Positions 25,879 through 40,129 of a stretch of DNA of 49,023 nucleotides are shown piece by piece (position 1 is the stretch's first letter; each line of letters starts with the position of its first letter). The position numbers were made by a program, and so were the translations under genes. This stretch comes from Rozella allomycis CSF55. Its lineage: Eukaryota. The notes under the pieces are model-generated. The model was not told where the DNA came from. It made no database searches and saw only the letters and a program-made list of their open reading frames with translations. The DNA is taken from NCBI GenBank assembly GCA_000442015.1, contig KE561207.1, forward strand, positions 1 through 49,023, in the 5' to 3' direction.

Positions 25879-27649
25879 ATGCCAGAATATCAACTGAAAT
25901 CATCATTTAGTTTTCGATTAAAGCGTTCATCAACACGATCTTCTGTAGTACCTGATGAGCTAACTGCCGATTCGAAATTATCATGTTTGGATATCACCGA
26001 CCAAGAAAAATCCCTAGAGTCCGCCCAAGTGAAGCATGTCAAAAATGTTAATATTTTCTCTGCTCGTCCTCCATCGTCTTCTTCGTCCATGATGATGAAT
26101 AGGTTAAAATCAGGCACTCTAAAGTTGAAGCAAAAAATAGTACAGCCGATTGATCAAATGATTGGGGAAATGAGCGAAACTAGCTTGAAAGATACATTTA
26201 AAAATAAATTACATGCATCTACCATATCACTGGGCTTGAAAAAGAAAACCGCAGAAACACACAATAGACAGCCTTTGGTATCAAGTCAAATTTACCAGGT
26301 ATATTATATAATTGAATTATAAAAGACCAAACTCTGGCAAGATTGTATTCCAGACAAGGATATATTACACAATTTGACCAGGGAGGAGATTGGCCGTCAA
26401 GAAGTTATCTTTGAAATTTATCAAAATGAAAAGACGTATCTAGAAGATTTAGATTTTCTTATTGATGTAATTTTAAATTATAAAGTCAAAAGAATTTTTT
26501 GATGCCAATTAACCGCCTACAAATCATCTCGCAAGAAGATATATCAAAACTATTCGCGAATTTGGAAGAAATACGAAGGGTGAATGCAGAAATATTTTCA
26601 GAGATTAAAAAGAGGCAAGAGGAAGATATTATTGTTGATCACATTGGTGATGTGTTTCTCGGAAAAGTAATTCTATTCCAACTATGTTCCAGTTTGAATC
26701 ATTACAGGCATATCAATTCTATTGCCAAAACTTGACACGAGCAAGACTTCAATTCACTGCATTAACGAATAGTGAACCGATATTTAAAAATTTCATTGAG
26801 GTAAACTCTCATTGATATGAGGAATTAATAGGACACAACCAAAAAGAGTCCAAAGAGACAAGACTTTTGGAGCTACCTTGATTTGCCTCGTAGGCATGTT
26901 CAGAGATATCCATTATTGTTAAACGCTTTATTGAAATCTACTCCCATGATTCACTCAGATTATAGCAATGTTAAAGGAGCACATAATTTGGCCGACGAAT
27001 TAGTTTGTTCCTTCGATGACCCGATGTCAGATTCACGCTCTGTTTATTCACAATCGACGTACTCTTTAAAACCTAGTCATTCGAATATGTCGATTTCATC
27101 TTTGGCGAGTCGAACAAGCGAGATGAGTATTGCCATATTTCACGCACAACTAACTAACGTAAACAGACTGTTACACCTACAAAAAATATTTAGCATGAAA
27201 AAGGACAAGGTATTTATACAATGTGACAAAAATAAGGTCTTGACCCCAATATTTCTCAAGTCCAAAGATTTATATCATGAAGGAATCTTATTTGACTATA
27301 AGAAAGGAAAACTGGTGCTTGGGATTTTGACAGATCAAGCATTTGTTTTACTTCGACGCGATTCTGAGTCTAGGTCTGCGCGGGCAGGTGAGTTTAATGA
27401 CTTTAGAAAGTTGTATACGAAACCGATTCCTAAAAACGAATTAGTGATTAAAATAGATGAAAAATCTCCTAGTAATATGCAGTCCCAATTTAAAAAAGAT
27501 GTTTTGATGTTCACGAACGAAAAGAGGGACTCGAAAACAGCAGCACTACAATACAACTTGCAGCCACAGAATGCGACAAATATTAAAGAATGGCTATCAG
27601 TACTGTAGCGTTAACTTATGTCAAGTCAATAAAAATTTCTGGCATTTAA
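25879..27649 (+). CDS. Dbl-homology (DH-PH) RhoGEF
   Basis: EIGRQEVIFEIYQNEKTYLEDL, LFANLEEI, IGDVFL, YQFYCQN, YLDLPRRHVQRYPLLLNALLKSTP; PH-like C-terminus. Stop is at 27608, or at 27649 if a last 26-nt intron is used. Confidence 0.87.
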
Positions 27650-32226: not shown

Positions 32227-35200
32227 ATGCCCGAGATATTTGAGCCGATTCTAGTAGATTTCAGTTCATCGCAATTGCTCTTTGAAACTGAAGCGTTTTC
32301 TTTTTTCCGAGCTATAATGTATAAAGCTCTGCCTAATACGAAACCGATAATGCGGGACGAGAGCAGTGCAAGTCGGGTGTTAATCAAGACGCCTAGTGAA
32401 GAGTTGTTTGACCGTTTGGATGAGGTTGATAGGATTATACCATACTTCCAGAATGAGAAGCGCATGGCAGAGAGGTTTGCATCAAAGTGCGGAATGTTCC
32501 ATGTGCCGAGATGGATTAGGAGAACTCAGGAAGGAATTGCCCTTGTTTATGATGATTTTGGAGGCTGTTCATTAAGGGAGATGTGTTTGAAGATGGGCTT
32601 TAGCGATCGGTTGCGAGTGTTTTTGAAGGTAGCGATTGATATAACTAGAATGTTGTATGTTTTGCATGACAGTGGAGGTGTATTTAGGAATTTGAGTATG
32701 AAATGTTTTTTGGTGGATGATAATTTTGATATGCGCGTCTTTAATTATACGTTGATGAGTTTTGTGGAAAGCGAGAGTGTGTCTTTTGATTTTATTGACC
32801 GATGGGAGTCTAGTATGATTGATTTGCAGTATGTTAGTCCTGAGCAAACAGGGAGGATGAACCGATGTGTGGACTATCGGAGTGATTTTTATAGTTTAGG
32901 GGTTATTTTGTATGAGTGGTTGTGTGGAACTGCTCCTTTTGATGGAGCCGATAGGCATGATTTGGTGTATGCGCATTTGGCTGTGCAGCCGCGACATCCG
33001 AGTGAAGTTTGGAATGAGATTCCTAAAGCGTATGGCGATGTGGTGATGAAGCTAATGTCAAAGAGGGCTGAAGATAGGTATTTTAGTTGTTCTGGATTGT
33101 TGGTGGATTTGGAGAGTTTGACGCGGGGAGTGGATAAATCATTCATAGCCGGGGTCTACGATGATAAGAGTAGATTGATGATACCAGAAAAATTGTATGG
33201 AAGGGAAGAGCAAGTCAAGGCGTAATTTAAGGAGATTATTTTCATGTAGAATAATTGAAGCGTATGAAACAGTTTGTTCTGGACAGGTTGCTGTTGTGAT
33301 GATATCAGGTTATTCGGGAATAGGCAAAACATCTCTTGTTCGTGAGGTGTATAAAGAAATTAGCAGAACAAGGTAACATGAATTGGATTTATTAAAAGGG
33401 GCTTTTTCATTAGTGGAAAATTTGAGCAATTTGGAAGATCGACGCCATTTGAGTCGTTGATCCAAGCATTTAATGGGTTGATAAAGCANTCCAAGCATTT
33501 AATGGATTAATAAAGCATTTATTATCACTTTCGACTGAATTGTTTGAGAAATGGCGCGACAAGATATTGGAAGCTTTGGAAGGCCACGGAGGAGCTCTGG
33601 TTGAGATTATTCCTGGGTTGATTGATATAATTGGCGAGCAAGAAGAGTTACCGAAATTGGGACCTGAAGAAACGACGAAGCGAATGAGTTTAGCGTTGAA
33701 AAAGTTTGTGCGAGTGTTTTGCAGTGTGGAGCATCCGTTGGTGTTATTTATGGATGATATAACGTGGGCGGATGCAGAGTCTCTGAAATTGATGGAAGAG
33801 CTGGCTAATTTGCACGGGATAGCACTGATGTTGATAGGAGCGTATAGAGACAATGAAGTGCCAGTGACGAGTTTGTTGAACGAGGTGTTGGGTAGATTGC
33901 GACACACGGATCATTATTTGTTTGAGATTGTTTTAGAAAAGTTGAATGTGAATGATGTGCAATTGTTCCTGTCTGATTGCCTGTACTACCATATGGCGTC
34001 ACCTAGATTGTGTAAACTGACGCAGCTGCTGTACTCCAAGAGTGGCGGCAATCCGTTTTTTCTGATCCAGTTGTTGAAGCATTTGGTGAGCCAGGGAACT
34101 ATTTATTTTAATTTTGAGATTGGGGAGTGGGAATGGACTGTGGAGGATTTGGAAAAGGTTGAGATTACGGAGAATGTTGTGTATTTGATGATCAAGCTGA
34201 TTCGGGGGATGAAAGAGTCGAATCAGAGAATATTGAAGTGTGCTAGCTGCTGTGGGACTATATTTAAGAGTCGTGATGTTGCAAAGTGTTTGGGGATGAG
34301 CAGTTATGAGCTGGTGGGAGAGTTGGATGAGGCGTTGAAGAATAATTTAGTTGTTAAAGTGAATGGATGTGAGGATATTGAGGCAACGGCAGTAGAGATC
34401 AACACTGGTACTAATATTTGTTATAGACTAAATCAGATAAATTTGATAATTTCAAATATGCGTTTACACATGATAGGATCCAACAAGCGTCGAATGAAAT
34501 GTTGAAAGAAGAGGAGAAGCGAAATATTCATTTAAAATTGGCGCGGTATAATTTATGAAATTTCAGAAATAGATATTATTATGAGGAGTGTTTGAATGAG
34601 AAAATGAAGGAAGAGGCATTATTTGGCATAGTCCAGCATTACAATGAGGCATTAGATCTAGTTGTAGAGGATGAGGAGAGGTTGATAGTGTGTGAATTGA
34701 ATTTGCGCGCGAGCAAGAGAGCCAGGGCCTCTGCGTCGTATTCAACGAGTCTGACGTTTTCCAATGCAGCGATAAGATCGTTCCCTGATAAGCTGAAAAA
34801 AGACCATTTTGAATTTTATTTTAAATTGTTGTTGAATAATTTGGAATCGGAGTATTTGAATACGAATTATGAGAGGGCCAAGGAGATGATAGATTTAGCG
34901 TTGCAAGAGTCGCAGTAAGAATTTAATTGAGAGTTGAGGGGTAGGAGTGAGTTGCAAAAGGCGCAAGTGTTGTCGCACCAGGTGTTGTATAAGACGAGTC
35001 AGGGCAAGGTGTTGGAAGCGATTGAGAGTGGATGGCAGGCGTTTAGGCTGTTGGGGGTTGAGATACCGACTGAGAGTGGGGCTATTGATAGGATGTTTAA
35101 TGAGTTGTTTGAGAAGAATAGGATGTTGTCAAAGGATATTGAAAAGCTGATTGAGTTGCCTGAGATGACTAGAGAAGATTATAGAGTTGTTATAAAGATA

Positions 35201-38200
35201 GGTAATCAGAGATTGATAGTGTTAAAATAGGTAATCAAAGATTGATAGAGTTAAAATAGGTAAATAGAGATTGATAGAGTTAACTAAGGTAAATGGATAA
35301 GTTAATTCACAATAATAGGTAAATAACCCACTACTTTTTGAGAAAGGGATTGATTTGATACCACCAGTTTATTTTGCTAGACCAGAATTGTTGGTGCCAA
35401 TGATATTAAAGTTGGTTGAATTGAGTGTAAAGAATGGAATATCATCATTAACATCATACGTGTATTGTCTATTTGGACTAGTTTTGAGTGGATTAAAGTA
35501 AAAAGAATTTTAATATTTAAAAGATATTATAAGGATTCGTATGTGTTTGGCAAGGCGGCGATGCATGTGTTGGACAAGTATCCGAATGATCCCATCGAGT
35601 GTCAAGTGATTAAAGTGTATGCCAGTCATATCCAATGTTGGAATGAGCCTTTGATGAATACATTGGAAACATTTAATAGAAGTTTGCAAGCAGGGATTAA
35701 TTATGCCAACAAGGAGTATTATGGGTATGGATCAGCTGAGAGAATTATTTATTCATTCTTTTCTGGTGTAAAGTTGGAGTTGATAATGGAGCAGGGAAGT
35801 AGATTGTTGACAATTGTAGAAGAATTGAAGCAAGTAAGTGAATTTGTGTGATGAGAAAGGATATTGGAATTTACTATACGAGATTGTTTCTGCAGTTGAT
35901 TTATAATTTGATCAATTCAGAGTCTGTTATAGATCCGATAATACTAACAGGCCAGTATTTCAATGAGAGTGATTTCCATAAACTGGAGAGTGTGACGTTG
36001 CTAGTGTTTGCATTTTATTTGTGTAAACTGATCTTGTGTGTAGTGTTTGGTGAGTATGACAAGGCGTGTATCTATTCGGCATTGGCAAAGCAGAATGCCA
36101 AGGGAGCGCCTGGACTGTTTATGTTGGCTGAATTGGAGTTTTATGCTACTTGTGGGTTTATTATGGAGTATAGAAATAATAAAGAGTTTCTGATTGATGA
36201 TATTGAGAATGGTTTGAATGAATTGAAAGTTGGGATGAACAGTTGTGAGTATAATTTGGATAATAAGATAAAGATACTGGAAGCATGCAAAGCTGCTATT
36301 ATAGGGGATAGCAATAATAGTTTTAAACATGCTACTCATAGTAATTTTAATCATGAAATTGATCAACATGAAGCAGAGAGGGTAGAACATTTGTTTGATT
36401 TGGCTATTGATGCTTCATTGAAAGATGGGTTTATTCATGAATACGCAATTTGTTTAGAATTGAAGGCAAAATTATTAATGAGATCGAAATCTAATTATTA
36501 CTTGTTGCATCAAGAAGCGTATTATGCGTATTTAAAGTGGGGCTCAACCACCAAGGGACATCAGCTGTTGAATTTAATAGGAAAGCGATTACTGTCAACC
36601 ACACCTAGACTGAATTCATCAACAGTTAGTGAGAAGATTGAAAGAAGGAGTATTGTTGAGATTAATTCAAGTATTTTGATAAAGGCGTGTGAAGTTATTA
36701 ATGATTTGGTTGATTTTGATTCTATTTGTAGAACATTGATGGAGTTGGTTGTCAAGTGTGTTGATGCTGATAGAGGGTATTTGGTTATGCAAGATTTGAT
36801 TAATAATGTAGATCCGCATGTTAAATTGAGTATTGTAGGGAAGAATAGTAAAGGTGAGAATGGTAAAGGAGAGAAGAGTAGTTCTAGTAGTGTGTCTGAT
36901 GGGAGTTCTAGCAGTAACATTCAAATGCACCCATCCACTTGCACTTCTTCTACTTCAACATCGACTACATCTATGGTACCGTGGTCATTGATTAATTATT
37001 GCTTGAGATCTAAAAAGAAAGTGATAAATGAATTTGATGATTTTATTAAAGATGAATATTTTAATTTGAATAAAACAAATCATGTATTGTGTGTTCCATT
37101 GGTTGACAAGGCTAGATGTATTGGATGTGTTTACTTGGAATCCAATAGAATAGGATTTAAACAGGAACAAATAGAAACATTGAAATTGTTATTGTTTCAA
37201 ACTACAACGCATCTTGTGAATTCCATGTTGATTAGTGGGAATGAAAAGAAGGATTTAATGATTGAAAAGCTGAAACAAGATTTGCGAAAGAACAATACTA
37301 ATTTAGAGTCTCTTGTGCAGAATAGAACGAAAATATTGGAAATAAGAAATAAACAATTGACGGATGAAATTCAAGAGAGAAAGAGAATTGAAGTTGAACT
37401 GAAAAGAGCGAAAGATGAAGCAGAAGCAGCAACGTTGTCTAAAAGCCAGTTTCTAGCCAACATGTCACATGAAATAAGAACTCCAATGAATGCCATTATT
37501 GGATTCACTGATCTCTTGCTGTTAACCAATCTGAATTCCAACCAAGCAGAATTCGCATCAAGCGTTAAATCAAGTGCGCAAGATTTGTTAACAATTATTA
37601 ACGATATTCTAGATTTCTCCAAAGTGGAAACTGGCAATATTGTTTTGGAGAGTTTAAAGTTTAATATTGAGAAGAGTATTGAAAGTTGTTTGGAAGTTGT
37701 TAATTCAATCAAGAATTCTGAGAATTTGGATTTGAGTTTGATTGTTAATAAGAATTTGCCAAATTTTGTTATTGGGGATCCTACTAGGTTTAGACAAGTT
37801 GTATTGAATTTGTTGTCTAATGCGATAAAGTTTACAAAGCAAGGGGATGTTTGTATTCAAGTAGAGATTTGTGAAAATGAAGAATGTGAAGATGAACTAG
37901 CAATAGGTAATTTGTATGAAGTGGAATTAACATTAGGTAACTTTTATAGTTTAGATTTAAGGTTAAGGTAATCAATTGACTGACGCACAGTCTTGCTTTG
38001 CACTAAACTCTCCATTACCTTCAGTTAAATCAAACAATTCACATTCTTCTCAACCATCAATCTACTCTAAACAATTCCATTCAACAAGCGAATCATTTCA
38101 TTCATCAAACCCCACAAACAACAAATACCTTCTAGTAGTCAAAGTGTATGATACAGGAATTGGAATCTCCAAAGAAAACAGAAAAAAATTATTCAAATTA

Positions 38201-39349
38201 TTCCAACAAGCAGATTCTTCAATAACAAGAAATTTTGGTGGCACTGGGCTTGGTCTTTCGCTTTCTAAAAGTTTAGCGAATGCTATGGGCGGTGATGTCT
38301 ACATTGCCTCTAGCAAAGTCAACGTTGGCTCGTGTTTTGTTTTTAAATGCAAAGTTGGTATTGATTTCAGCAGCTCTACTTCTTTAATTAGTGATTCTAC
38401 AAGTAAAAGTACAAGCACTTCTAGCACTATGAATATATTAAACAACATGACTTTAAACACTTCTACTCCTACAATGAATATACCTTCTACTTCTACAATG
38501 AATACCCCTTCTACTCCTTCTACAATGAGTACCCCTTCTACTTTTACTTTTACTTCTTCTACTACGTCTACGTCTACTTCTAATGAGTCAAATGATAATG
38601 ACGTTCTAAATTTCAATCTTTTACTAAACAAAAAATATTCCCTCATAGTCGACGACAAATCTTCCTTCTTTTCAAAATCTCTAATCTATTATCTAGAAAA
38701 CACCTTCAACTGCATTCCAAACGACAAAACTCCAGACTTTATCATCATCAAAGATTCATTCCTCCTTCCAACCAACATCCCCTCCACAGTCCCATCAATC
38801 CTCATCAAATCAAAGAAATCCCTTCACAAATCAGCATTCGAACTCACCCAACCAGTCAAACGAAAAGCCCTCTACGAAACAATCATCAAAGCACTCAAAA
38901 TAAACCCAAAAAACAATCTCCAATCTATCCCAGAATCTATTCCCGAAAAATCACAATCTAAAGAAAAAACCATCTCTGACGTTTCCATTCTACTGGCCGA
39001 AGACAATCTAGTCAACCAGAGACTCATATTTCACATGCTAAAGAAGATTGGATACAAGTGCGATCTCGCGGAAAATGGCGTGCAGGTGTTGGAGCTGTTG
39101 GAAAAGAAGACGTACAATATTATACTCATGGATGTGCAGATGCCCGTTATGGATGGGATTACTTGCACTAGGATTATTTTGAAAAAGAATTTGAAGAATA
39201 GACCGCTTATTGTCGCACTCACCGCTAATGCGCTGTCGGAATCAAAGGAAAGATGTTTGGATGCTGGAATGGATGATTTTTTAACGAAACCGATTAAATT
39301 AAGTGAATTGGAAAATGTTTTATCGAAAATTCAATCAACAAGGAAATAA
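32227..39349 (+). CDS. Large hybrid histidine kinase (S/T-kinase-like - AAA ATPase - helical - GAF - HisKA - HATPase - REC), fungal group X / Chk1-Mak type
   Basis: YVSPEQTGRMNRCVDYRSDFYSLG, Walker A GYSGIGKT, HPLVLFMDDITWAD, GGNPFF, HDRIQQ, FLANMSHEIRTPMNAI, NLLSNAIKFT, DTGIGI, GGTGLGL, ILLAEDN..MDVQMPVMDG..FLTKP. Confidence 0.94.
33461..33517. repeat. 28-nt duplication joined by a single N (likely uncollapsed alleles)
   Basis: Two copies differ only at GGG/GGA and TTG/TTA (synonymous). Confidence 0.85.
35202..35346 (+). other. Stack of five abutting mini-intron units (29, 29, 29, 30, 28 nt)
   Basis: Units 35202-35230, 35231-35259, 35260-35288, 35289-35318, 35319-35346 each begin GTAA and end AG; removing all 145 nt gives VIKIGIDLIPPVYFARPELL. 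Confidence 0.85.
37907..37967 (+). other. Stack of two abutting mini-intron units (30 + 31 nt)
   Basis: 37907-37936 and 37937-37967 each GTAA..AG; removal joins ORF 35848-37971 in frame to ORF 37976-39349. Confidence 0.75.
38395..38582 (+). repeat. Ser/Thr/Pro low-complexity coding repeat in the histidine kinase
   Basis: Imperfect units like ccttctacttctacaatgaatacc (PSTSTMNT). Confidence 0.75.
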
Positions 39350-40128: not shown

Positions 40129-40129
40129 N

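Follow-up and report, generated by a model that had tools for sequence, protein, structure and literature searches.

The hybrid kinase gene and its public model

The window, by which we mean the whole analyzed stretch of 49,023 nucleotides from contig KE561207.1 of Rozella allomycis CSF55, carries on its forward strand a gene for a hybrid kinase. Specifically, Pfam profiles identify Pkinase, AAA_16, GAF, HisKA, HATPase_c, and Response_reg domains in its product. The gene corresponds to the public protein P0001 (2221 aa), named at NCBI as a Rozella allomycis protein, which is 100% identical to the gene's last exon. At two sites in the gene, intron-like units lie end to end. The features that bear on the analysis are as follows.

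32227..39349, + strand: hybrid kinase gene (P0001)
35202..35346, + strand: sister locus; five abutting GTAA..AG units of 29, 29, 29, 30, and 28 nt (145 nt in all), following an exon that also ends in ATAG
35860..37906, + strand: exon encoding GAF, HisKA, and the N-box part of HATPase_c; ends in ATAG and contributes one base of a Gly codon (phase 1)
37877..37906, + strand: exon tail, the last 30 nt of that exon; its last 19 nt are the probable source of the 3' part of unit 1
37907..37936, + strand: unit 1, 30 nt, GTAAT..TTAAC..TTAG; a multiple of three with no in-frame stop
37937..37967, + strand: unit 2, 31 nt, GTAAC..TAAG; its removal is required for the frame
37968..39349, + strand: last exon, starting GTAATC and encoding a loop insert, the HATPase_c G-boxes, a Ser/Thr-rich linker, the REC domain, and the stop codon

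In the P0001 model, unit 2 is the sole intron at 37907–37967, and unit 1 is read as ten coding residues (1752–1761). At the sister locus, the model places a 76-nt intron, an 11-nt micro-exon, and a 30-nt intron. Further upstream, it posits a 154-nt intron (33342–33495) that spans a single N. This 154-nt "intron" swallows coding sequence along with a 26-nt intron at 33373–33398. In the same interval, a 29-nt near-duplicate flanks the N at 33489, and it is probably an unmerged assembly overlap.

Five abutting units at the sister locus

The five-unit stretch can be read from frame and homology. Among the 32 subsets of its five whole units, only the removal of all five keeps the frame open. That removal deletes residues 903–915 of P0001, 13 residues that are absent from 35/35 aligned homologues, and it produces a gapless homologue alignment. 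Together, frame and homology show that all five units at 35202–35346 are non-coding. The public model is wrong at this site, where it includes 13 spurious residues. Given this error and the invented 154-nt intron, we regard the public gene model as an ab initio prediction that carries no evidential weight. It is probably wrong at unit 1 too, by 10 residues.

Tandem Repeats Finder reports a 29-nt array at 35193–35283, with 90% matches, that corresponds to the youngest three units. The array begins 9 nt inside the exon, so it also spans the splice junction.

Two abutting units in the HATPase_c domain

Units 1 and 2 abut as AG|GT, with the junction TTAG|GTAAC at 37936/37937. Unspliced read-through of the exon ending at 37906 meets a stop at 37969, and the downstream 460-codon frame opens at 37967. 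The frame is restored either by removing both units (61 nt), which makes the HisKA/N-box frame continuous with the 460-codon frame of the G-boxes and REC domain, or by removing unit 2 alone (31 nt). The initial annotation had reported abutting GTAA..AG units of 30 and 31 nt whose joint removal restores the frame, preceded by an exon ending in ATAG. The sequence bears this out, with ATAG seen at 37906. It had also pointed to the GTAATC start of the next exon as a donor whose 23-nt GT..AG product would be out of frame. That, too, is correct: the product (37968..37990, + strand) scores 3.2 bits under the splice-signal model described below, and we reject it as a third intron. Other partitions of the region fare no better. 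Specifically, a 25-nt alternative for unit 2 that uses an acceptor at 37961 scores 11.6 bits and, read from the sequence, leaves a stop, and a 36-nt unit at 37871–37906 with a GTG donor is unlikely, as such donors occur in 0/45 introns.

Unit 2 is almost certainly a real intron. The alternative is that there is no intron at the site at all, and that a one-base assembly error in 37937–37967 breaks what is in truth a continuous coding repeat. The assembly does contain flaws, namely single Ns and the 29-nt unmerged duplicate around the N at 33489. However, no N lies near unit 2, which possesses full intron signals (14.5 bits) and modal length. Moreover, unit 2 does not resemble the exon tail, hence there is no third coding repeat for an error to interrupt. 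We regard this explanation as extremely improbable.

The status of unit 1 is less straightforward. Its length is a multiple of three and it is free of stops, so the frame does not demand its removal. The site lies in a variable insert of ~70 residues between HATPase_c profile positions 37 and 38, a loop in which homologues differ. Thus, homologue alignment is uninformative for unit 1, and ten extra residues would be harmless there. These features are compatible with a reading in which unit 2 is the only intron, and unit 1 is coding sequence, duplicated in frame, that lengthens a disordered HATPase_c loop by ten residues. The intron-like ends of unit 1 would then be leftovers of the duplication, unused or used, exitron-like, in a minority of transcripts. 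P0001 reads straight across the unit, removal of unit 2 by itself gives an open frame, and the unit, taken in frame, partly repeats the exon-tail peptide. The public model, however, is a poor witness, since it includes at the sister locus residues absent from every aligned homologue and invents an intron upstream. The differences between unit 1 and the exon tail also argue against a coding role: among six, only one is synonymous and one falls at a third position, and changes of those kinds are so few that unit 1 displays no sign of coding constraint. Taken with the splice-signal scores presented below, these considerations make a coding unit 1 possible but somewhat unlikely. Conversely, its removal from the transcript, by whichever route, appears likely.

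RNA folding of 37892–37982 gave z = +0.79, that is, no special structure. One RNA run with an R. allomycis label contributed a single 34-nt piece at 26401–26434 and nothing on the hybrid kinase gene.

Strand composition switches precisely where unit 2 ends, and the altered stretch extends from 37968 to ~39050. In 60-nt bins, counts are G15/C3 at 37846, G13/C2 across both units, G9/C16 at 37966, and G0/C18 at 38026. Third codon positions change accordingly, from G3=20/C3=1 before the site to G3=3/C3=40 at 38570–38869, and the bias reverses again within the REC domain, near 39050. No positive flip in the window is larger than that at ~37971, and the strongest negative flip falls at ~40128, beside the single N at 40129.

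Splice signals and intron length

The excerpted text of PMC6349667 describes two putative R. allomycis S23 introns as short (~30 nt), and that of PMC8476143 gives a density of 2.5 introns per kb for the species. In the window, joining of open reading frames yielded 84 intron candidates on the + strand and 117 on the − strand, from which 45 were curated as frame-required. All 45 are 26–32 nt long, with a mode of 27; the set was picked with a 40-nt length ceiling and thus leaves room for longer introns, and some 40–75 nt candidates in the window stay viable. In the donor matrix from these introns, A occupies +3 in 97% of cases and +4 in 65%. Units 1 and 2 both fit the ends of U2-type R. allomycis mini-introns (GT..AG, with a GTA(A/T) donor) and their length range. 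With regard to flanking sequence, the next exon begins with GTA in 5/45 curated introns and the preceding exon ends in AG in 10/45. Where exon borders read AG|GT, junction-spanning duplicates would be spliceable.

A leave-one-out position-weight model covering donor, acceptor, and length was built from the 45 introns, and it gave the following scores.

Real introns: 13.4 bits (sd 3.3)
Unit 1: 16.9 bits, above 39/45 window introns
Unit 2: 14.5 bits
Single 61-nt intron: 7.5 bits, a penalty that is partly circular, the curated set having had a 40-nt ceiling

Such scores are nearly absent from coding sequence, which argues against a coding unit 1. Specifically, in a 27.4-kb exon mask, only 4/2229 GT..AG segments score at least as high as unit 1, and three of these are probably real introns of 26 nt. 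The fourth is a 27-nt, stop-free segment at 27210–27236, its length again a multiple of three. It is a GTAT..AAG unit (+ strand, 15.7 bits) in a RhoGEF-PH gene, in the linker between both domains, and the choice, as with unit 1, is between an intron and coding sequence, here nine residues. When intronic positions only are scored, unit 1 has 15.6 bits, a value that 42 window units reach when both strands are considered: 21 curated introns, 3 units from the two arrays, and 18 others, mostly on the sense strand within genes. About five of those 18 are antisense to Pfam-supported genes and are probably false. The sister-locus units score 13.6–17.2 bits on the scale that gives unit 1 15.6. That unit 1 scores so highly is largely inheritance from its parent sequences and is not evidence of selection for splicing. 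Indeed, by our own arithmetic, conservation of six signal bases at ~23% divergence has a chance expectation of about one in five.

The same scores bear on the manner in which the 61 nt would be removed. One notion is that the whole stretch leaves as a single intron, spliced from a donor at 37907 to an acceptor at 37967, and that the AG|GT inside it is an unused remnant of duplication. This pairing restores the frame and would recreate exactly the mRNA that preceded the duplication; the binding sites at the abutting junction presumably overlap, which would favor use of the outer sites, and the viable 40–75 nt candidates in the window leave a place for an intron of such length. By contrast, every curated intron is 26–32 nt long, and in two conserved multi-exon genes, judged by Pfam profile coordinates, the pieces of open reading frame are so closely spaced that long introns would hardly fit, if at all, between them. 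Furthermore, the internal sites are as strong as real ones, with 5.1 bits for the unit 1 acceptor and 14.5 bits overall for unit 2. Given such strong nearer partners, intron definition should choose the short pairs. We therefore consider one-step excision quite unlikely.

The abutment itself is unusual. Of composition-matched shuffles, 0.9% contain an internal AG|GTAA dividing a 61-nt intron into two units, each 24 nt or longer. Among 166 intron-like units in the window scoring at least 12 bits, 5 pairs have a gap of 0, compared to 5 in total for gaps of 1–30 nt. All 5 gap-0 pairs reside in the hybrid kinase gene, one at 37907–37967 and four, not mutually independent, at 35202–35346. A look-alike of the form 26+1+29 in a TBPIP/Hop2-domain gene (13502–13447, − strand) does not qualify as a near-stacked pair. 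Its 29-nt GTA..AG part scores only 4.9 bits, and when that part is taken as coding and only the 26-nt intron is removed, the frame is open through to the C-terminus.

Origin of unit 1

The initial annotation held that the two units are dissimilar and not obvious copies of each other. Their sequences contradict this view. Anchored at their 5' ends, units 1 and 2 are identical at 19/30 positions, a level that only 0.5% of 946 other intron pairs in the window reach (mean identity 0.43, sd 0.08). Unit 1 also matches the 30 exon nucleotides directly upstream at 18/30 positions. Across 37877–37966, self-identity at period 30 is 37/60, whereas positions across the window average 17.6 (sd 4.0). A value this high occurs at 0.033% of positions, which include just one other locus in the window.

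The two resemblances divide unit 1 between them. Specifically, unit 1 is chimeric. Over its first 11 nt it resembles the head of unit 2 (9/11 identical), and over the remaining 19 nt the end of the exon tail (14/19), for a composite match of 23/30; the breakpoint falls after base 10–11. Over all window positions and both strands, the composite statistic has a mean of 11.1 and an sd of 2.5, and 0.065% of positions reach 23. On the + strand, the unit 1 locus is the only one at which the composite is at least 23, and the highest value upstream of any of the other 44 curated introns is 17. As a chimera predicts, the exon tail and unit 2 match each other at only 10/30 positions. Unit 1 has the makeup of duplication-based gain, a tandem copy of its flanks with AG|GT at the copy borders. 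Very probably, to judge from these matches, unit 1 arose by a 30-nt duplication that spanned the 5' splice junction.

The exon tail was well suited to this role. Its last 16 nt are acceptor-like, scoring 4.6 bits relative to an average of 5.8 for true acceptors, and the exon tails that precede the 43 other training introns score at most 4.2 bits. With an acceptor-like exon tail already in place, the copy would have been a complete intron from the start.

Tandem Repeats Finder reports nothing at 37877–37967 because the copies are too diverged. The unit sequences do not belong to a dispersed repeat family, as no further copy with at least 66% identity exists in the window. A metagenome scan for relatives, using the 435 residues upstream of the site, matched 399 patterns, none of which was confirmed, and thus yielded no close relative. 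The nearest homologues are ~30% identical and differ in the HATPase_c loop.

The initial annotation further proposed that longer intervening sequences here are built from ~30-nt modules, and it took the two units as independent support for that idea. The layout agrees with the first part: the 145-nt and the 61-nt stretches both split exactly into abutting GTAA..AG units of 28–31 nt. The independence does not hold, for the modules are products of tandem duplication across a splice junction and hence of slippage, only old.

A model of two stacked mini-introns

Our favored reading, to which we assign a probability of roughly 0.5, is that units 1 and 2 form a stack of two mini-introns and that each is excised via the internal sites. 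The ancestral gene would have contained one phase-1 intron of ~31 nt, now unit 2, in the loop between the HATPase_c N-box strand and the G1 box. A 30-nt tandem duplication, probably by slippage, would then have copied the last 19 nt of the exon and the first 11 nt of the intron. The event would be old, because the copies are now only ~77% alike. With the exon ending in ATAG and the intron starting with GTAA, unit 1 would have been born with a 5' splice site, an AT-rich, acceptor-like AG end, and the standard Rozella length.

Both units would be recognized as ordinary mini-introns, and excision could proceed in either order. If unit 1 leaves first, ATAG comes to precede the unit 2 donor, GTAAC. 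If unit 2 leaves first, the unit 1 acceptor comes to precede GTAATC. Thus, after either first step, a normal intron would remain, and the exon between the two units would have a length of zero. The mature mRNA is predicted to join 37906 to 37968, without the ten residues inserted by the public model. One caveat is that, with the two units abutting, the factors bound at the unit 1 acceptor and those at the unit 2 donor would have overlapping footprints, and the internal sites might be harder to use as a result.

Relation to known intron architectures

Intron gain by tandem genomic duplication across an AGGT site has been put forward by Hellsten et al. (2011; PMC3265369), as given in the excerpted text of that paper. 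In the cases described there, as here, one copy provides the GT and the other the AG, a complete intron is made in one step, and the old mRNA can be restored. Those cases, in the same excerpted account, begin with duplication of exonic sequence, and they make a first intron. By contrast, the duplicate that became unit 1 is as long as an entire intron and would span a 5' splice junction already in place, and the result is a second intron end to end with the first, with no exon between them. Potato RdRp is reportedly a further case of intron gain through tandem duplication.

The AG|GTAA junction also recalls recursive splicing. Duff and colleagues are said to have described, in 2015, zero-nucleotide recursive splicing at ratchet points in long introns of Drosophila and human. 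At such a site, as at the Rozella junction, the sequence reads AG|GTAA; a donor is regenerated at the exon end after the first step, as it would be in Rozella. The zero-nucleotide recursive sites that have been described subdivide introns of many kilobases. The Rozella site differs in scale, as it comprises 61 nt (145 nt at the sister locus) at ~30 nt per putative step.

Fungal stwintrons provide another point of comparison. These "complex intervening sequences" consist of several U2-type units that are removed by consecutive standard reactions, and duplication of the donor element has been proposed as their origin; removal in one step and removal in two steps can coexist (Ag et al., 2020; PMC7138796, excerpted text). 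As portrayed there, stwintron units are nested: the internal intron splits a signal of the external one, which forces an inside-out order. The Rozella units, unlike stwintrons, lie side by side, each with a complete donor and acceptor, and either order works. We reject a stwintron assignment for units 1 and 2, which abut end to end, with neither interrupting the other's signals.

Finally, exitrons are protein-coding introns inside exons, stop-free and with a length divisible by three. Unit 1 is similar in that it could be kept or removed without breaking the frame. Unlike an exitron, unit 1 lies directly against a constitutive intron, from which it derives. Our literature search found no description of abutting or tandem mini-introns in Rozella.

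Implications

A broader hypothesis is that the Rozella spliceosome is length-gated to ~26–32 nt and clears longer stretches only by recursive removal of ~30-nt pieces through zero-length exons. If so, slippage duplications across splice junctions would heal themselves where they end in AG|GT, and introns could multiply locally, in quantized steps, with the two-unit and five-unit loci as snapshots of the process. We offer this generalization tentatively and consider it doubtful.

The variant of tandem-duplication intron gain suggested here is new, while the general mechanism is already known. Duplication across a splice junction would require no mobile element, and it would do no harm provided that the exon ends in AG. 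Should both units be spliced, the site would represent the smallest case of recursive, zero-length-exon splicing known to us, and it would provide a readable example of an intron multiplying through junction-spanning duplication. Moreover, two loci in one gene, one with two units and the other with five, would offer a tractable pair for asking about the upper length limit of a spliceosome that handles tiny introns.
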